Virus record (IMG/VR): IMGVR_UViG_3300046383_000002
Coordinates: 1-32,106 of that record
Length of the DNA: 32,106 bases
From: a virus
Lineage: Duplodnaviria; Caudoviricetes
Reading direction: 5' to 3' (one strand)
In this document: positions 1-20,393 of the stretch, piece by piece
Layout of the letters: each line of letters begins with the position of its first letter
Position numbering within the stretch: the stretch's first letter is position 1
Program-made: the position numbers and the translations under genes
Notes under the pieces: model-generated
Told to the model about the DNA's origin: nothing
Seen by the model: the letters and a program-made list of their open reading frames with translations, nothing else
The model's database searches: none

Positions 1-558
1 CCTCTCCTGTACATTCTCGGAAGTCGAATTCAAACTGTTCCTGACGTATACGTCGGCGTCGACCTCAACAACATCCCCAAAAAGAGCAACGTCAACTGGG
101 CAGACATCTACGACAACTTCGACTTTGTAACCAAAGGCAAGAGCCTTGAAGCCAAGTACACCCCCTTCGATAAGGCAGTTTGCCTCGAGGTCATCGAGCA
201 CATGGGTCCGGAAGATGGGGACGCTCTCCTCGGGAACCTGCACTACCTTCTCCGAGATAGTGGGATCCTCTATCTTTCAACACCAGTCTTCAACGGATCT
301 CGGGCTGCTAACCACATCCACGAATACACCATCCCCGAACTCCAGGGAAAGGTTGAGAAGGCTGGCTTCAAAGTCCTGAGGCGCATCGGCACGTTCGCCA
401 GCAAACCCGACATTAAGCCAGTGCTCACCCCACCGCAAGAGCTGATCTACAACGAGATGGAGGAGTGGTTCGGCGGAGACGTGATGTCAACGATCATGGC
501 GTACAACCACCCCGACCAGAGTCGCAACAACATGTGGGTTCTTCAGAAGTCAGAGTAA
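1..558 (+). CDS. Class I SAM-dependent methyltransferase (5' partial, small-molecule type)
   Basis: Frame 1 is open from base 1 (PLLYILGSRIQTVPDVYVGVDLN...FDKAVCLEVIEHM...GILYLSTP...NHIHEY). YVGVD, FDxxxCLEVIEH and GxLYLSTP are typical Methyltransf_11/23 motifs. The track's ATG at 202 is internal. Confidence 0.8.
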   Translation, partial: PLLYILGSRIQTVPDVYVGVDLNNIPKKSNVNWADIYDNFDFVTKGKSLEAKYTPFDKAVCLEVIEHMGPEDGDALLGNLHYLLRDSGILYLSTPVFNGSRAANHIHEYTIPELQGKVEKAGFKVLRRIGTFASKPDIKPVLTPPQELIYNEMEEWFGGDVMSTIMAYNHPDQSRNNMWVLQKSE

Positions 559-562
559 CGTT

Positions 563-1471
563 GTGGGGCAAATCGTTATTCTCGAAGGGCCTGATGGCTC
601 TGGAAAAACGACCTTGGCTAGGTGTCTGTGTAACGGGTACGGGTTTTCGTACGCCCACACGGGCCCTCCCAAGCCTGACGAAAACGTCCTGCTTGACTAC
701 GCCTTGAAACTGTATCGTGCCAACGAGAGTGGCAAGAATACAGTAATCGACCGACTACATCTTGGGGAAGGAATCTACGGACCCATCATGCGGGGAGTTG
801 ACCTCCTTACTGAGGAAGGTCTCGTCATCCTGCAAAGGATGATAACGGCGTACGACGCAAAGACGGTTATCTGCCTTCCAAAATTCGATGTCGCCTCCCA
901 AAACTGGAGATCGAAACACAACGAATACATCTCCGACGACAGCAAGTACAGACGCATCTACACGGCGTACGCAAAACTTGTTCCGCAGTACGATCACTGG
1001 GATTACAAGGAGGTCGACGTCGAAGACAAGGCAGACTCCCTCCTTACGGTTCCAGTCCCAGAAGATCGTTGCCCGCCAGACGTCGTAGGCTCCCCACACC
1101 CCTGCTTTCTCGTCGTTGGCGAGAAGGCGAATCAAAAAGAACTTGACGTTCCGTGGGTAGACCTGAACCACGGCAGCCACTTCTTATACGAATGTCTCCA
1201 TGAAGCGGGGTTCGTCGAAGAGGAGTTGGCGTTCATCAACGCCCTCAGGATCGACAACACTGAAACCGAAGTGATGAAAGCTTGGGGTGCGCTAGGTTCC
1301 CCGACCCCAATCCTTCTCGGAGGCATCGCGAAGAAACTCTTCTTCGTCGCAGGATTTGACAATGAACCCTACAGCATCCCACACCCAAACTACTGGATGC
1401 GGTTCCACTCCAAACGACGAGCAGAATATGTCGAGAAGCTCAGGAGGGTCAGGTCACTCGTGTATGCATAA
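563..1471 (+). CDS. P-loop dNMP (thymidylate-like) kinase fused to a C-terminal uracil-DNA-glycosylase-like domain
   Basis: N-terminus has Walker A ILEGPDGSGKTT and the dNMP kinase motif VIDR. C-terminus has FLVVGEKAN, GSHFL, FINA, ILLGGIA and IPHPNY, in the order of the UDG-superfamily motifs. Confidence 0.8.
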   Translation: MGQIVILEGPDGSGKTTLARCLCNGYGFSYAHTGPPKPDENVLLDYALKLYRANESGKNTVIDRLHLGEGIYGPIMRGVDLLTEEGLVILQRMITAYDAKTVICLPKFDVASQNWRSKHNEYISDDSKYRRIYTAYAKLVPQYDHWDYKEVDVEDKADSLLTVPVPEDRCPPDVVGSPHPCFLVVGEKANQKELDVPWVDLNHGSHFLYECLHEAGFVEEELAFINALRIDNTETEVMKAWGALGSPTPILLGGIAKKLFFVAGFDNEPYSIPHPNYWMRFHSKRRAEYVEKLRRVRSLVYA

Positions 1472-2291
1472 CCGCGACATCTACACCGCTTGGATAAGCC
1501 TCCTGAACACGCTGATTCGACACGGGAAGGTAACGTCACCTCGAAATTTAAAGACCCTCGAGCTGCTCGGCGTTTCGTTGCGTGTTGACACAGGCCTGGG
1601 AAACATCATCTACCACCCGTATAGAAACCTCAACTATAAGTTCATGGTCGCCGAATGGCTGTGGATTGTTGAGGGCTCGAACCAGGTGAAGGTCCTATCG
1701 CAGTACAACAAAAAGATCGCCCAATTCTCAGACGACGGAGAAACGCTCGCGGGCGCGTACGGACCCAGGATCAACGCGCAGCTTGATTGGGTTCACCACG
1801 TGCTTGTCCTGGAAGACACGCGGCAAGCCGTCATCACAATCTGGACTCCCACGCCAGCGGCCTCAAAAGACATTCCCTGCACAGTCGCTCTTCAATTCCT
1901 GAAACGTGGCGAGTACATGAACCTCATTGTGACAATGAGGTCTTCAGACGCGTGGTTGGGGATCCCGTACGACTTCTACTCGTTCTCGATGCTCCTCAAC
2001 CTGGTGGCTTCGTACCACGGCTGCCAGGTGGGGTTCGTTCAGATGAATCTGGGGTCATCTCACTTGTACGAAACAGACCTCGCTGAGGCTAAGAAGGTCA
2101 TCAATAGTCCTGGTCAGGGGATGGTCGCTTGGTCCCCTAGGGTACCCTATGATGTCCCACTGGATGTCTTTAGGACTCTTCATGACCCGACCCTTGGCCT
2201 CGAAATTTTGCCAGCTCCATGGGGTTTGTATCAGAGAGTCTTAAGAGAAGAGACGAGGAGAGCAGATGCCTTTAAGGTACTCACCGAGTAA
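1464..2291 (+). CDS. Thymidylate synthase superfamily enzyme, predicted dCMP hydroxymethylase/methylase
   Basis: Motifs AEWLW, GAYGPR, DTRQA, DIPC (catalytic Cys), MRSSDAWLGIPYD and GSSHLYE. ATG at 1464 overlaps the kinase stop and is preferred over the track start at 1356. Confidence 0.85.
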   Translation: MHNRDIYTAWISLLNTLIRHGKVTSPRNLKTLELLGVSLRVDTGLGNIIYHPYRNLNYKFMVAEWLWIVEGSNQVKVLSQYNKKIAQFSDDGETLAGAYGPRINAQLDWVHHVLVLEDTRQAVITIWTPTPAASKDIPCTVALQFLKRGEYMNLIVTMRSSDAWLGIPYDFYSFSMLLNLVASYHGCQVGFVQMNLGSSHLYETDLAEAKKVINSPGQGMVAWSPRVPYDVPLDVFRTLHDPTLGLEILPAPWGLYQRVLREETRRADAFKVLTE

Positions 2292-2724
2292 CCGGCCAGA
2301 GTTGCAAGAATATTTCTTGCGCATGCTGGACCTTGTTTCATCTCGGTCGACCTGCGGACGCCGTTCAGTTGGTTCAATCATCACCACCGACAAAGGCCAC
2401 ATCTTAAGCACGGGATACAACGGCGTGCCAAGTACCGTTGCCCACTGCATTGAAGTCCCCTGTTCTGGAATCAATGACCCTTCTGGGGATTCCAGCCGCT
2501 GTTTTGCCGTTCACGCTGAACAAAACGCCTTACTTCAATGCTGGAGACTTGACCTTGCCAGAACAATGTACTGCACTGTCTTCCCATGCTTCATCTGTGC
2601 GAAGATGATTGCAAATACTCAGATCAACAAACTCATTTACCGAGAAGAGTACGCAGATCGAGCAGGGCTCGTTCTCCTAACTGATTTGGGATTTGAGCTT
2701 GTTCATGTCCCCAGATCGACATAA
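2266..2724 (+). CDS. dCMP deaminase
   Basis: STCGRRSVG, TGYNG, HAEQNAL and PCFIC zinc-deaminase motifs. GAGGAG Shine-Dalgarno upstream. Confidence 0.92.
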   Translation: MPLRYSPSNRPELQEYFLRMLDLVSSRSTCGRRSVGSIITTDKGHILSTGYNGVPSTVAHCIEVPCSGINDPSGDSSRCFAVHAEQNALLQCWRLDLARTMYCTVFPCFICAKMIANTQINKLIYREEYADRAGLVLLTDLGFELVHVPRST

Positions 2725-4525
2725 ACAACCAAGCCTGCTAGCGCAAGTCGGGCCCGATACAGGGTGGAGGGCCCCAGAACAACTCCCTGTACTCGATGAT
2801 CGATTCAGGAGACTCGGGTTTGATTCGGAGTGGACTGGCACTGACTGGCTAGGGGATGACGTTCCAGTCGGCTACAGCTTCGCGCTTGAAGACGGTCGTA
2901 AGTTTTATCTTCCTGTGGGACACCAGGGAGGGGGAAACCTCGACAAAGCGTTAGTTCACAGGTGGATGAACCGTGAACTCAAAAACAAAACTCTCGTCAC
3001 ACTCTCTGGCAAAGGCGACATCCAAATGTGTCGGAAAGTTGGAGTTGACCTTGAAGCTCTGGGATGTTCAATTGAAGAAGTACAGTACCAGGCGGCACTC
3101 CTTTCGGATATACGGCGATCCTTCAAAATGGAGGATCTGGCAAATGATTACCTCGGACAAAAGAAAATCGAAATACAGCGTAAAGATATCTGGCAACTTC
3201 CAGCCTACGAAGTCGGACCGTATGCTGAAGAAGACGCTGCCATCACCCTTAGACTTGGCGATTTTCTCGGCGAAAAGATCAAAGAGGAGGAACTCGATAA
3301 GGTCCTCGCGCTCGAGAACTCTCTGATTTACTGCGTTTGCGAGATGGAGCGGAATGGAGTGCCGCTGGATTATGATAAACTTTTTGCGTGGAAGGGTGAG
3401 ATTAAGAAGAGGTCTGATCAGATTATTCTTCTTATTGCTGAAGGTACAGGGCTTAAGGTCAACCCTAACTCCGCGCACGATCTTGCTCAGCTGTTTGGTC
3501 TTCTGGGTATTGGATATAATCGCACTCCTCCTACTGGTAACTTTCCTAACGGGCAACCAAGCTTTACAGATGAATTTCTCGCAACTATTGATAATGAGTT
3601 TGTTCATCTTATCCGTGAAGGTCGGACTCTTGATAGTCTTGATTCTAAATATGTTGGAAAGTACGCGGCAGCGATTAGAAGAGGAATCCTCCACTACCAG
3701 CTTCACCAGCTTAAAGGAGATGAAGCTTACGGAACGATCTCTGGGAGATTCAGCTCGTCGAAGGTAAACATCCAGCAGGTCTTCGACCCCGAGCGTCAAG
3801 CGGATAAAATGGGTCGGAGAGACTACATCATCCGTCAGCTGTTTCTCCCCGGCAAGGGGATGAAGTGGTTGAAGGCTGACGCAAGCCAGATTGAGTTTCG
3901 GCTTTTCGTCCACTATTCAAGAAGTGCTCGACTCATTAAGATTTTCAACGAGACTCCAGATGTTGACTTCCACCAGCAAGTCGCTGACCTGTGCTCCATC
4001 AAAAGGAAGCCTGCGAAGAACATTAATTTCGGCAAGTTGTTTGGAATGGGACGGGACAAAATGGCTCGTGAGCTTGGACTACCAAGATCAGAGTCAGACG
4101 TTCTATTCGCGAAATACGATCAGAAATTCCCCGAGACTAAGAATCTCATGGAAGAAGTCATGGGGGTGGCCCGTAATCGTGGTTACGTTAAAACAATACT
4201 TGGGAGACGAGCGAGATTTCCCAACGGTGAGCGCCTACATTCCGCCCTTAATCGAGTAATCCAGGGATCTGCCGCTGACATCCTCAAGATTAAGTTGCTG
4301 GAACTCTACAACAACCGGAAGGCTCTCGGGTTCTTGATGCGTCTAACCGTTCATGACGAGGTTGGTGGCGATGTCGAGAGCAAGGAGCAAGCAGCCGCTA
4401 TTAAAGAGATGCTCGAGGCTCCTATTCCTGGGTTGGGTATCAGGGTTCCTCTGCTGTGGGATGTCACGGTTGCGAACAACTGGGGAGAAGCTTCGTGGCC
4501 CAAAGAGTGGTCGAAAGCGGCCTAA
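2705..4525 (+). CDS. polA: DNA polymerase family A with 3'-5' exonuclease
   Basis: Exo I FDSE and Exo III YAEED. Polymerase motifs GTISGRFSS, A (ADASQIEFR), B (RKPAKNINFGKLFG), NRVIQGSAAD and C (TVHDE). ATG 2705 chosen over TTG 2693. Confidence 0.95.
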   Translation: MSPDRHKQPSLLAQVGPDTGWRAPEQLPVLDDRFRRLGFDSEWTGTDWLGDDVPVGYSFALEDGRKFYLPVGHQGGGNLDKALVHRWMNRELKNKTLVTLSGKGDIQMCRKVGVDLEALGCSIEEVQYQAALLSDIRRSFKMEDLANDYLGQKKIEIQRKDIWQLPAYEVGPYAEEDAAITLRLGDFLGEKIKEEELDKVLALENSLIYCVCEMERNGVPLDYDKLFAWKGEIKKRSDQIILLIAEGTGLKVNPNSAHDLAQLFGLLGIGYNRTPPTGNFPNGQPSFTDEFLATIDNEFVHLIREGRTLDSLDSKYVGKYAAAIRRGILHYQLHQLKGDEAYGTISGRFSSSKVNIQQVFDPERQADKMGRRDYIIRQLFLPGKGMKWLKADASQIEFRLFVHYSRSARLIKIFNETPDVDFHQQVADLCSIKRKPAKNINFGKLFGMGRDKMARELGLPRSESDVLFAKYDQKFPETKNLMEEVMGVARNRGYVKTILGRRARFPNGERLHSALNRVIQGSAADILKIKLLELYNNRKALGFLMRLTVHDEVGGDVESKEQAAAIKEMLEAPIPGLGIRVPLLWDVTVANNWGEASWPKEWSKAA

Positions 4526-5002
4526 ATGACTGAGGCCCAGTATACGTCGAAGGTCGTTGCATATCTGAAGAATGCTGGAACCGTCACGTTCAAGCATTCT
4601 GACCACTTTACGACTGGGATCCCTGATATCAGTTCTACAAATTGGGACCACACGACTTGGATGGAGGTCAAGATCGTTAACGAAGGGCAAACCATCTTTA
4701 ATCGGGTCACACAGCAGGACAAGGTCCAATTCTTTACGATGGTGGCGTTGGGAAATCTAGGCCGAGCGTTCTACATCGTTAAAAAGAGTACTGAAGTCTT
4801 TATCATTCGACCGGCGACGTTCGTTCATATGTTTGAGGCTGAAGACCGTTCCGACGGGTACATTCGGGATAGGAGTCAATTTGTTGGATCTTTAACCAAT
4901 CACGAGGTTCTTGAAAGCGTATTCAGGAGAAACTTCTCCGCAATTATCCTGCCAACAGACTACTCCACGATCTTTAACCTTACCAAAATGGGGAAGATAT
5001 GA
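4526..5002 (+). CDS. PD-(D/E)xK nuclease (VRR-NUC / Holliday junction resolvase-like)
   Basis: MTEAQ...GIPDI...WMEVK...Q pattern, directly after the polymerase. Confidence 0.75.
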   Translation: MTEAQYTSKVVAYLKNAGTVTFKHSDHFTTGIPDISSTNWDHTTWMEVKIVNEGQTIFNRVTQQDKVQFFTMVALGNLGRAFYIVKKSTEVFIIRPATFVHMFEAEDRSDGYIRDRSQFVGSLTNHEVLESVFRRNFSAIILPTDYSTIFNLTKMGKI

Positions 5003-5580
5003 ACAGGCAACAAACTCTTGTCTACGAGTTCATGAAGAAACACGACCTCACCATGAACATCAAAAACATCCAGCATGACGTAGACGCTTTGTTACGGCTA
5101 CGGCTCGTTGTCGAGGAGCTGGCGGAGCTTATCAAAGCTGTTCACGAGCGAAATCTTGTAGAAGTAGCTGACGGTCTTGGAGATCTGATGTACGTGGTCT
5201 ATGGAACAGGCGTGACCTACGGGTTAAAGATCCACGGCAAAACTCCAGTCAACTTCATGGGTGAACCTACGCTCATGAGAATAGCGCAAGTCGTCGAATG
5301 CCTCGCTGAGGTTACGCAAGCTGTTGGGGACTTCGCGTACGCACTCGAAATGTTCGATCTTCTAGCCCTCGAAACCTCCCTGAGCCTCATCATCGAATCT
5401 TGCATCAACTTCGCAGAAACCACGAACTTGCCAATTGAAGATATCTTTGAAGCGATCCATGAATCGAACATGACGAAGGAAAAGCTTACCGAATTCAACA
5501 AGGGCGGTAAGGGCCAGAACTTCATTCCTGTGAATCTAAAAATTGTTCTCTGGCCTGAGGCGCAGAATGGACTACGTTGA
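4999..5580 (+). CDS. MazG-like all-alpha NTP pyrophosphohydrolase
   Basis: LRLRLVVEELAEL...EVADGLGDLMYVVYG and IHESNMTK. ATGA overlap with the previous gene. Confidence 0.85.
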   Translation: MNRQQTLVYEFMKKHDLTMNIKNIQHDVDALLRLRLVVEELAELIKAVHERNLVEVADGLGDLMYVVYGTGVTYGLKIHGKTPVNFMGEPTLMRIAQVVECLAEVTQAVGDFAYALEMFDLLALETSLSLIIESCINFAETTNLPIEDIFEAIHESNMTKEKLTEFNKGGKGQNFIPVNLKIVLWPEAQNGLR

Positions 5581-6564: not shown

Positions 6565-6981
6565 CTACGTCTTACCTTTCAACGCAAGGTAAGCTTTTCT
6601 CGCCAGGATAAATTTCCGGTTCGTTCCTCCCTTATCCGGGTGAGCATCTAACATATCCTGTTTCAACTTCGCCAATTTCTTCCGCTGGAGCCGGGCCCAC
6701 CGCTGCCGGTGGTGGGACAGGGTCTTACAGGCCTTGCATTTCCGCTTCGTACTCCCCGGGGCGATATAGGTATTGGCCGGGGTGAAGAGATGGCCATGGA
6801 TGCATTTAGTTCGTTTCGAACCCTTGCGCTTCCGGTTGGCCCGGACAATCTGCTCTAGGCCTGCGGGCGTGAACCCGCTGGGCCACTGGGCCTTGCGCCG
6901 GGCCATCATGTGCCGGGCAGCGGTGGATCTCCGGGAATCGCCCTTGCGAATAACCCCTTCTCCAACTAATTTCCGACTCAT
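6565..6981 (-). CDS. Basic protein with an HNH-associated-type zinc finger and a C-terminal J-domain-like (HPD) segment
   Basis: TKCIHGHLFTPANTY...RKCKAC, followed by LKQDMLDAHPDKGGTNRKFILARKAY. Confidence 0.65.
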   Translation of the reverse strand: MSRKLVGEGVIRKGDSRRSTAARHMMARRKAQWPSGFTPAGLEQIVRANRKRKGSKRTKCIHGHLFTPANTYIAPGSTKRKCKACKTLSHHRQRWARLQRKKLAKLKQDMLDAHPDKGGTNRKFILARKAYLALKGKT

Positions 6982-18992: not shown

Positions 18993-19393
18993 TACGTCGA
19001 GAGTAAGGCACCCTGTCCAGTTGCCTTGAAGCTTGAGCTCGCCTTGGTCGTCGTCGAACCTTCAGCGATTTTACCAAGCTGAATCCACGCCGTTCCGCTA
19101 TAGAACTGCGCAGGGACGTCAAATCGAGGATACAGGTAAAGGGTTTGCGGAACGGTGTCGATTGACGCCGTCCAGAGAGCCTTACTTCCGATGTCAAAGT
19201 TGCCTGCGAAGGTTCCTGTCCAACCTTGCAGACCTTTGACGAACTGTTTCCAGGAATTGACCAATGGCGTAGTATCAACGATCGCCATATCGAAGTCAAT
19301 TGACCAAGAAAGTTGTTCCCCGATAGGGATGGCGACACCACCGCCAGTAGGGGACATGTAGATAACCGCGCTCTTACCATGAATGTTGGGCAT
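18992..19393 (-). CDS. Tail tube (major tail) protein
   Basis: IHGKSAVIY...SWSID...VDTT...WKQFVKGLQGWTGTFAG...LYLYP...YSGTAW. ATG 19393 has an AAGGTGGAG SD, so the track's longer start at 19567 was rejected. Confidence 0.85.
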   Translation of the reverse strand: MPNIHGKSAVIYMSPTGGGVAIPIGEQLSWSIDFDMAIVDTTPLVNSWKQFVKGLQGWTGTFAGNFDIGSKALWTASIDTVPQTLYLYPRFDVPAQFYSGTAWIQLGKIAEGSTTTKASSSFKATGQGALLST

Positions 19394-20393
19394 TCGGATT
19401 CTCCACCTTTGCGTAATCGCAAATCGTTTTAACGACCTCCACCGCCCGGTGATCGAAGGTACATTCCTGAACCCACTCGTATGCTTCTTGAGCAAGTTCA
19501 GATCGTTTTTCTGGAAGTTGTAGATAATACCTAATTGTAGCTTCCCAATCTCTGGGATCTTTAACATACGGAACGCTGGAGTTGAACACGTTTACAAGTT
19601 CAGGTCTATAATCAGAAATCTGAAATGATTCACAAGCGGCGATTTCGTATGCCCGGGGACCCAAACTATACGCCTGGTTATCGGCGTAAGCTCGATGAAA
19701 ATTGATACAGATTTTCGAGCTTGAATAAAGTTCAGCGACCTTATCGTTAGGAACGACCGACTGATCTAGAAACGGGTAAAGATTGCTATCAGGTCCAATA
19801 TTCGGCCAGATTCCACACAGCTTGAGGCGAATATCTACCCAGTTAATATCTTCAAGAACCTTTTGTCTTTCAGGCCATCCTGAACCAACCATCATTACGT
19901 CATACTGAATCGGAGTATTAACGTGGTAGTGGATCTTGGGATCGTACGAATGAGGAACATACGTCCACCCAAACTTCTTAGCAGAGAATCGATCATTCGT
20001 CATGATCAGCATCTCAGGGTAGGTAGACGCCCACTCCTTTTGATATTCGTCCTCATACGGTGATTCGGTGAACAGTACCACCGTCGGGATTTTTGCCTTC
20101 TTTAACAACCACAAACTAATGGGGTGGAGGTTTAACCCTGAAACAACGAAAACGACATCTGCCTCAAAGTAAAGGGCCTCGTTCAAGATGTTTTCACTAG
20201 CAAACCTCGAAAGCAAAGCTACATCGTTTGAGATGTCAGGAGGAAGCGCCAATTTATGGTATGAAGTTCGTTGTTGAAGCGCGTAATCCTTGATGTTCTC
20301 TTCTCCGAAGATCTTGGAGAACGCGCTACGGTAGCCTCTCGCCACGTCCCCGATGGACATCTTAACGATCGGCCACACAAACAGGAGCTTCAC
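19374..20393 (-). CDS. GT-B glycosyltransferase (CgeB / Glyco_trans_1_2-like)
   Basis: FTESPYE, HSYDPKIH, YDVMMVGS...ER, YSSSKICINFHR, RAYEIAAC..FQISD and TFDHRA. Confidence 0.85.
   Translation of the reverse strand: MKLLFVWPIVKMSIGDVARGYRSAFSKIFGEENIKDYALQQRTSYHKLALPPDISNDVALLSRFASENILNEALYFEADVVFVVSGLNLHPISLWLLKKAKIPTVVLFTESPYEDEYQKEWASTYPEMLIMTNDRFSAKKFGWTYVPHSYDPKIHYHVNTPIQYDVMMVGSGWPERQKVLEDINWVDIRLKLCGIWPNIGPDSNLYPFLDQSVVPNDKVAELYSSSKICINFHRAYADNQAYSLGPRAYEIAACESFQISDYRPELVNVFNSSVPYVKDPRDWEATIRYYLQLPEKRSELAQEAYEWVQECTFDHRAVEVVKTICDYAKVENPNAQHSW

Follow-up and report, generated by a model that had tools for sequence, protein, structure and literature searches.

We found that a tailed phage encodes, in one open reading frame, a P-loop dNMP kinase joined to a domain of the uracil-DNA glycosylase (UDG) superfamily, and that this fusion is both real and widespread, an uncharacterised form of a known superfamily of enzymes set in a T4-like pathway. 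The homology of the fusion, the conservation of its residues, its gene context, its losses and its standalone forms were observed directly. We favour, with a confidence that stops a little short of even, the reading that the UDG-like domain is an accessory DNA glycosylase, which would remove 5-hydroxymethyluracil (hmU), and U, from phage DNA predicted, from gene content, to contain 5-hydroxymethylcytosine (hmC).

The fusion gene and its neighbours

In the window, that is, the whole stretch of 32,106 nucleotides that was analysed, the minus strand encodes the structural proteins of a tailed phage and the plus strand a replication module; the k-mer bias of the window revealed nothing diagnostic. 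The module contains the following features.

1..558, plus strand: class I SAM methyltransferase, cut at the 5' end of the window (Pfam Methyltransf_23, E=5e-7; homologue of AXL3 gp31)
563..1471, plus strand: dNMP kinase-UDG-like fusion gene (302 aa, GTG start, single open frame)
563..1012, plus strand: P-loop dNMP kinase domain, aa 1-150 (YorR/thymidylate-kinase fold; predicted hm-dCMP kinase)
1070..1468, plus strand: UDG-like domain, aa 170-302 (derived from family 4 but lacking the Fe-S loop; key residues E187, W198, N226, H274 and R280)
1464..2291, plus strand: thymidylate synthase (TS) homologue (Pfam, E=2e-23; L143D, H147T, D169, N177D; predicted dCMP hydroxymethylase)
2266..2724, plus strand: dCMP deaminase family protein (Pfam, E=1e-18; PHROG 174)
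2693..4525, plus strand: family A DNA polymerase (PolA) with 3'-5' exonuclease and no N-terminal UDG domain
4526..5002, plus strand: small conserved protein (cluster in 22 loci; weak PHROG 2165 match)
4999..5580, plus strand: MazG/PRA-PH nucleotide pyrophosphohydrolase, predicted dCTPase/dUTPase (Pfam PRA-PH, E=2e-11; PHROG 671)

The fusion open reading frame begins 4 nt past the methyltransferase stop, its 3' end overlaps the ATG at 1464 by 8 nt, and a UDG-domain HMM run across the window gave its sole match at 563-1468. The product of 4526..5002 we take, from its motif, to be nuclease-like. Elsewhere in the window, an HNH-endonuclease-like gene (6565-6981, minus strand; PHROG 826, E=3e-13) lies near the convergence of the two gene blocks, and a glycosyltransferase gene (19374-20393, minus strand; Pfam Glyco_trans_1_2, E=2e-20) lies among tail genes; its more likely role is glycosylation of the virion rather than of DNA.

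A thymidylate-kinase-like domain joined to a UDG-like domain

An earlier note, made from the sequence alone, had placed a P-loop kinase over about the first 150 residues, and this was confirmed by matches to PHROG 761 (E=2e-10) and to YorR (PDB 2axp, E=3e-16). When the full-length model was searched with Foldseek, YorR ranked first (2axp/3kb2) and thymidylate kinases (TMKs) were also returned; down to rank 50 the list held kinases only, with no UDG match there, and a single-sequence search of the PDB gave nothing beyond P-loop noise. The P-loop occupies aa 9-16 of the 302-aa protein. Residues E8, G9, G14, K15, D63, R64, Y72 and R77 are invariant among the listed relatives, and the P-loop (G9/G14/K15), the DR motif (D63/R64), Y72, R77 and the NMP-kinase fold place the domain with the YorR/thymidylate-kinase-like enzymes. 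Its predicted substrate, hm-dCMP, is drawn from context only. AlphaFold gave a confident two-domain model of the full-length fusion (pLDDT 96.4, pTM 0.92), and for the UDG-like domain alone the two scores were 94.2 and 0.89.

The same note had read UDG motifs in the C-terminal part and had staked this assignment on the UDG fold. All four motifs were found in the order claimed: GEKAN at aa 186-190 (nt 1118-1132), FINA at aa 224-227, LLG at aa 251-253 and HPNY at aa 274-277. Single-sequence matches to Pfam UDG were weak and sub-threshold (E=0.013; domain alone, E=0.0017). A 50-sequence profile of the domain matched the Thermus family-4 UDG 1ui0 (E=3e-9), TM0511 (1.5e-7) and UdgX (1e-6), a kinship beyond chance, and matched 9qhs, a phage polymerase UDG domain, weakly (E=3e-4). 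The fold was recovered as well: in an ESM Atlas structure search with the Atlas's own model, 136 residues aligned to a type-4 UDG cluster with a TM of 0.79, and AF2 models of the domain consist of four alternating strands and helices (pLDDT 94-96).

By alignment, the counterparts of Thermus E41, F54, N80, H155 and R161 in the fusion are E187, W198, N226, H274 and R280. Among the 150 listed relatives, an acidic residue is kept at 187 in 148, F/W198 in 148 and N226 in 147, the last never being replaced by Asp (0/150); H274, P275 and R280, which make up the family-4 motif B HPxxxxR, are kept in 147, 149 and 145. All five positions (E/D187, F/W198, N226, H274, R280) are retained together in 141 of the 150. 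The homology, the alpha/beta fold, the pocket aromatic, the Asn and the motif-B His assign the domain to the UDG superfamily.

Several marks of family 4 are absent, namely the [4Fe-4S] cysteines, motif A GE(G/A)PG, a conserved E47 and N89. As the earlier note had observed, the motifs diverge from the usual GExPG and no Fe-S cysteine set is apparent. Across the 150 relatives motif A reads G186, E/D187, R/Q/K188, A/P/G/V189, N/S/G190, and the Cys-bearing loop that follows the N80 counterpart is about 14 aa shorter and has no conserved Cys set. The spacing from N226 to the Leu is mostly 26-27 residues versus 40 in 1ui0, the Fe-S/N89 loop being deleted. A Glu at the E47 count (G+7) occurs in 6 of the 150 listed relatives, the window copy included, in a loop whose length varies from 10 to 19 residues; rare residues of the window copy are W198, N276 and M279. 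Having lost the Fe-S loop, N89 and conservation of the thymine-blocking E47, the domain was rejected as a member of family 4; against TIGR00758, 6 of 50 members of the fusion family matched weakly, short of the curated cut-off (best E=0.003), and the window copy was not matched. Membership of UdgX was rejected as well, since the R-loop KRRIH, with its covalent His, falls in a loop that is deleted here. The domain thus appears, from its sequence, to combine a family-4-like pocket with a position outside family 4.

Published work on these enzymes gives the retained and lost residues a meaning. In Thermus UDG, E47 blocks thymine, H155 dominates catalysis (H155S causes a >1000-fold loss, N89A one of <10-fold) and changes at G42 are harmful to activity (PMC5387724). 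In UdgX, R184, six residues after the His, binds the phosphates of the backbone to either side of the target; the Glu of motif A is able to activate water, and activity is lowered by a Gln at position 3 (PMC10359453). R280 of the fusion occupies the same His+6 position as R184.

The fusion lies within a predicted hmC pathway

Gene context was compared across the window, 4 phage records and the 80 best of 364 IMG/VR matches. Of these 85 sources, 59 have the fusion (L016 only weakly) and 26 an unfused kinase; since the loci are akin to one another and were ranked by their similarity to the query, the counts overstate independence. A TS homologue is present in 57 of the 59 fused loci of this set. 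Asp177 is found in all 57, residue 143 is Asp in 56 and Glu in 1, and Asp169 is kept (E. coli numbering), while the dUMP hydroxymethylase controls SPO1 and ZC01 have Asn where these proteins have Asp177. By published residue rules, Asp177 with an acidic residue 143 and D169 marks a 5-hydroxymethyl-dCMP synthase (PMC13326640), and we predict from sequence that the TS homologue of the window, as in all 57 of the fused loci with a TS, is a dCMP hydroxymethylase. Ordinary dTMP synthesis, as the AXL3 module is annotated (PMC7504290), and dUMP hydroxymethylation, the label in PW916, were both rejected on the Asp177 versus Asn difference from the controls. The published rules likewise reject a 5-hydroxy-C product, since D169 is kept, and a 5mC product, since residue 143 is acidic. 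A link to Xp12 was dropped, Xp12 not being among the matches listed.

By homology, the module holds the components of a T4-like pathway: a hydroxymethylase signature, a dNMP kinase, a dCTP pyrophosphatase and a deaminase. Neighbourhoods of TS(Asp), deaminase, PRA-PH and PolA have been found in cytosine-modified contigs (PMC8670742; bioRxiv 2024.12.05.627091), and seven such deaminases, whose partner synthases are predicted to make 5mC, put hmdU into DNA when T4 gp42/gp1 were co-expressed (bioRxiv 2024.12.05.627091). AXL3 carries the same module as the window. Its DNA is cut by 2 of 37 restriction enzymes, both with A/T-only sites, and resists 35 of the 37 (PMC7504290), a pattern that we count, indirectly, in favour of an hmC context. 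In 15 related loci without a TS, the UDG-like domain is absent; 13 of these use ThyX and 11 have a deaminase.

The methyltransferase at 1..558 is a candidate capping enzyme for the hydroxymethyl group. Among 68 TS-bearing loci, 19 carry the methyltransferase and 19 a member of a putative glycosyltransferase cluster (so labelled from the look of its sequence, with no Pfam match); the two never co-occur (Fisher p=7e-4, kinship ignored), and the sister loci L013 and L015 differ in that one has the methyltransferase and the other the putative glycosyltransferase. This pattern suggests alternative ways of capping hmC, possibly including an undescribed methyl-capped base; a literature search on a methyl-capped hmC base found nothing. 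A protein resembling C5-cytosine methylases (Pfam, E=2e-11), atypical and with an altered motif I, is encoded at L009:5201-6418 and in 19 further loci, often beside the module, and the methyltransferase gene of L005 (upstream of 9947) bears a long in-frame insertion that looks homing-endonuclease-like. An HMUDK_hel (5-hmdU DNA kinase helical-domain) gene adjoins the hm-dCMP module in 4 loci (L010:7310-8176, L005, L031 and L072); this family is known from thymine hypermodification.

The domain is widespread, repeatedly missing and sometimes standalone

At E<=0.001 an exhaustive search with the fusion returned 2,805 cluster representatives, of which 958 reached <=1e-10; for many, the match may lie in the kinase only. 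A word-index search with the UDG-like domain returned 2 proteins only, the family having come from the exhaustive search. The 150 listed relatives are 253-358 aa long, with both domains matched in all or nearly all, and relatives about 32-46% identical to the query keep the acidic 187 and H274. Among cultured phages, the fusion is present in Stenotrophomonas AXL3 (gp29, annotated as thymidylate kinase only), Pseudoxanthomonas PW916 and Actinomycetia DSL-LC01; the metagenomic record ctUtU524 has it too. The gene is absent from the deposited annotation of PW916 (L002:2319-3296) and of ctUtU524 (L004).

In a quick kinase tree, kinases that adjoin a TS but lack the fused domain are dispersed (11 changes for 12 rows), several being nested inside fused clades, and in 7 loci of the 85-source set (best 80 of 364) a synthase of this signature accompanies a kinase that is not fused. 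A search, run without a positive control, for the UDG-like domain elsewhere in 10 unfused records, of which four are complete or almost complete, found it in 0 of 10. The scatter of unfused kinases and these records together argue that the domain is accessory. In a relative-rate test the domain-less lineages had changed more in 9 of 11 triplets for the kinase, 6 of 8 for PolA and 7 of 10 for TS, the triplets overlapping. No drop in GC followed loss of the domain, GC being lower in 3 of 11 overlapping pairs.

Standalone copies also occur. One is gp394 of phage RsoM2USA; measured in either direction round the genome, at least 84 kb separate it from a TS (Asp143/169/177), a deaminase-like gene and a kinase of the same phage. 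This TS, the second in that phage, has the dCMP-hydroxymethylase signature and stands with the deaminase-like gene and the kinase (L091/L094, 5956-8443), so the DNA of RsoM2USA is probably C-modified; the paper describing the phage treats the TS as ordinary (PMC8504454). In the jumbo-phage fragments L098 and L099, the standalone copy is immediately followed by genes for a guanylate-kinase-like protein, an SIS isomerase and a nucleotidyltransferase/APH-kinase fusion (L099:2308-6142, L098:9986-12213). These neighbours are likely to activate sugars for DNA hypermodification, and the same kind of sugar-activating pair is given for DLP3 and RB69 (PMC13326640). The copy in L100 has no kinase or sugar-activation neighbours. 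The three standalone loci are 4-44% complete jumbo-phage fragments, one showing only a canonical TS within the fragment; a locus search with P0154 found no locus. Standalone copies retain the motif HPQxWKRF, which argues that this motif is not a kinase interface.

The catalytic His was lost in one clade of 8 loci that retains the domain, a single event. A deaminase is found in 0 of these 8 loci and in 0 of 4 whole records, AXL3 having served as the positive control, versus 40 of 51 His-keeping loci; G016, which is 97% complete, keeps the His yet has no deaminase.

A candidate hmU DNA glycosylase and its alternatives

We infer every activity, the identity of the base and each substrate in the scheme that follows. 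From homology, the TS homologue would make hm-dCMP, which the kinase and host enzymes would convert to hm-dCTP; MazG would remove dCTP and dUTP while the deaminase supplied dUMP for dTMP; and PolA would build hmC-DNA, to be capped by the methyltransferase (here) or the glycosyltransferase (elsewhere). Host Ung is not known to remove the deamination products that arise in the DNA of phages that replace C with hmC. In our scheme hmU could arise by deamination of hmC (giving hmU:G) or through a deaminase that also acts on hm-dC nucleotides. The HPxYWKRF loop would flip the base, and F/W198, N226 and H274 would bind it. Since the Glu that blocks thymine is not conserved, the pocket would tolerate a 5-substituent; completing the repair would fall to the base-excision pathway of the host. 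The fusion itself would serve to co-express the domain with the pathway and not to channel a substrate.

Several observations point in this direction. The joint retention of the five pocket positions favours a glycosylase; the conserved His and acid argue for chemistry, R280 at the place of UdgX R184 for DNA rather than a nucleotide, and N226 for a uracil-type base rather than cytosine. The missing thymine gate suggests that a 5-substituent is tolerated, and the gene context suggests that this base is hmU, which the hmdU-producing deaminases of like neighbourhoods make a real by-product. The lack of a deaminase in the His-less clade we also count in favour. Retuned pockets have precedents in the UDG-fold enzymes Brig1 and Brig2, which act on modified bases (bioRxiv 2025.10.29.685425). 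Of the roles that the earlier note had proposed, excision of deaminated modified C appears the best supported and is here narrowed to hmU from 5hmC, as the TS signature (57/57) and the kept pocket and Arg would suggest.

Other observations weigh against an hmU glycosylase. Motif A position 3 is R/Q/K rather than G/A, and changes there lower the activity of Thermus UDG and of UdgX (PMC5387724, PMC10359453). The window copy has the Glu at G+7 along with its rare W198, N276 and M279; the loss of the His is a single event, and G016 keeps the His without a deaminase. Domain-less lineages show no GC drop, and 7 loci of the same signature are unfused. If hmC is capped, the deaminated base may exceed the pocket. 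Finally, the fusion to a kinase, the model with its pTM of 0.92 and the standalone copy beside a different NMP kinase hint at a role at the nucleotide level.

Such a role would have the UDG-fold pocket, shifted to the nucleotide pool, sense or hydrolyse free dUMP or hm-dUMP, the latter as a deaminase by-product, before the attached kinase could carry it towards the triphosphate, whether to sanitise the pool or as a form of allosteric control. We consider this unlikely, although it is the main alternative. Kinase fusion in all or nearly all of the 150 listed relatives, a confidently modelled interdomain arrangement, the greater change of domain-less kinases than of their fused sisters (9/11 overlapping triplets) and the guanylate-kinase-like neighbour in L098/L099 speak for it, and the deaminase link fits it equally well; against it, both the backbone-binding Arg and the aromatic and basic loop of motif B are highly conserved, the RsoM2USA copy is far from the kinase and the L100 copy has no kinase neighbour. 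No UDG-family enzyme is known to us that acts on a free dNMP. If it hydrolyses hm-dUMP, the protein would be a one-chain proofreading kinase and, to our knowledge, the first nucleotide sanitiser of the UDG superfamily; DNPH1, the eukaryotic hm-dUMP hydrolase, would be its functional analogue. The earlier note had suggested that the domain might channel the kinase. Unlike a nucleotide-level role in general, obligatory channelling does not fit, since several kinases next to the same synthase lack the domain and it stands alone in RsoM2USA.

That the domain is an ordinary uracil-specific DNA glycosylase, clearing dU misincorporated as the deaminase raises dUMP, seems to us quite improbable. Hosts usually supply Ung, the thymine gate is not conserved (6/150), and the domain goes with hm-dCMP synthases, being absent from the 15 TS-less loci of which 11 have a deaminase. 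Nevertheless, the uracil-type pocket is kept, the window copy has its Glu at G+7, and active phage UDG domains with Glu and His are known from the polymerases of SPO1/SP15-like phages (PMC13697223), to which the weak 9qhs match also relates. Inactive phage UDG domains, of N4-like polymerases, exist too (PMC13697223), and the deletion of the Fe-S loop and N89, the bulky residue at motif A position 3 and the clade that lost the His but keeps the domain would suit a non-catalytic binder of hmU, hmC or abasic DNA or of a nucleotide, or a stabiliser of the kinase. We hold this to be more doubtful still: retention of the acidic 187 (148/150) and H274 (147/150) in sequences as divergent as about 32-46% identity is not easily accounted for unless the domain performs chemistry or recognises a base tightly. 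The earlier note had also raised an attack on unmodified host DNA. An anti-host weapon that excises host cytosine or the modified bases of rival phages would parallel the repurposing of Brig1 and Brig2 against modified bases (bioRxiv 2025.10.29.685425), but N226 is Asn in 147 of 150 relatives and the module has its own nuclease-like gene in 22 loci. In engineered UNG it is an Asn-to-Asp change that gives cytosine excision, and this change is never seen here (0/150), which makes attack on unmodified host cytosine unlikely. T4 does degrade C-containing DNA, a point in favour, and we regard the anti-host reading as very improbable overall.

Returning to the hmU glycosylase that we favour, this UDG branch is a concrete candidate for keeping hmC genomes from drifting to A/T, and since AXL3 (gp29) is in culture the idea is open to direct experiment. 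For mapping hmC and hmU, a small glycosylase free of Fe-S that accepts uracils with a 5-substituent would be useful as a reagent, and the module further predicts an undescribed methyl-capped hmC base. A literature search for a kinase-UDG fusion found none, although an earlier bioinformatic mention is possible; the accessible portions of PMC13229309, PMC7824862 and PMC8504454 do not mention one.

Comparison with known systems

The pathway shares its logic with T4 5hmC synthesis (gp42, gp1, gp56, Cd and the alpha/beta-glucosyltransferases): a hydroxymethylase signature, a dNMP kinase, a pyrophosphatase, a deaminase and a capping enzyme. It differs in having a YorR/TMK-type kinase (gp1-type in T4), a MazG-type pyrophosphatase, a family A polymerase and a methyltransferase as capping candidate, and we know of no comparable UDG-like fusion in T4. 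YorR of B. subtilis SPbeta (2axp, 3kb2) is the best match to the kinase domain in both sequence and structure; unlike the phage fusion, it is a single domain of 173 aa with no UDG-like part.

The UDG-like domain has the motif order of Thermus thermophilus UDGa (1ui0), TM0511 and UdgX and keeps counterparts of E41, F54, N80, H155 and R161. It differs from family 4 and UdgX in being about 130 aa long, kinase-fused and phage-encoded, in lacking the [4Fe-4S] cysteines, the N89 loop, the UdgX R-loop and a conserved E47, and in its motif A, G-E/D-R/Q/K-x-N in place of GE(G/A)PG. SMUG1, the eukaryotic hmU glycosylase, would be a functional analogue of the mechanism that we favour; neither SMUG1 nor DNPH1 was matched by sequence in the kinase-UDG profile searches, and the domain derives from family 4. 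The nearest precedent of the fusion is the active UDG domain on the PolA of SPO1/SP15-like phages such as phiLo and YerA41, likewise a phage UDG with catalytic Glu and His, attached to a replication enzyme in a modified-base genome (PMC13697223). Those domains are fused to a polymerase in T-modified genomes, with dU excision shown, whereas the present domain is fused to a dNMP kinase in genomes predicted to be C-modified.
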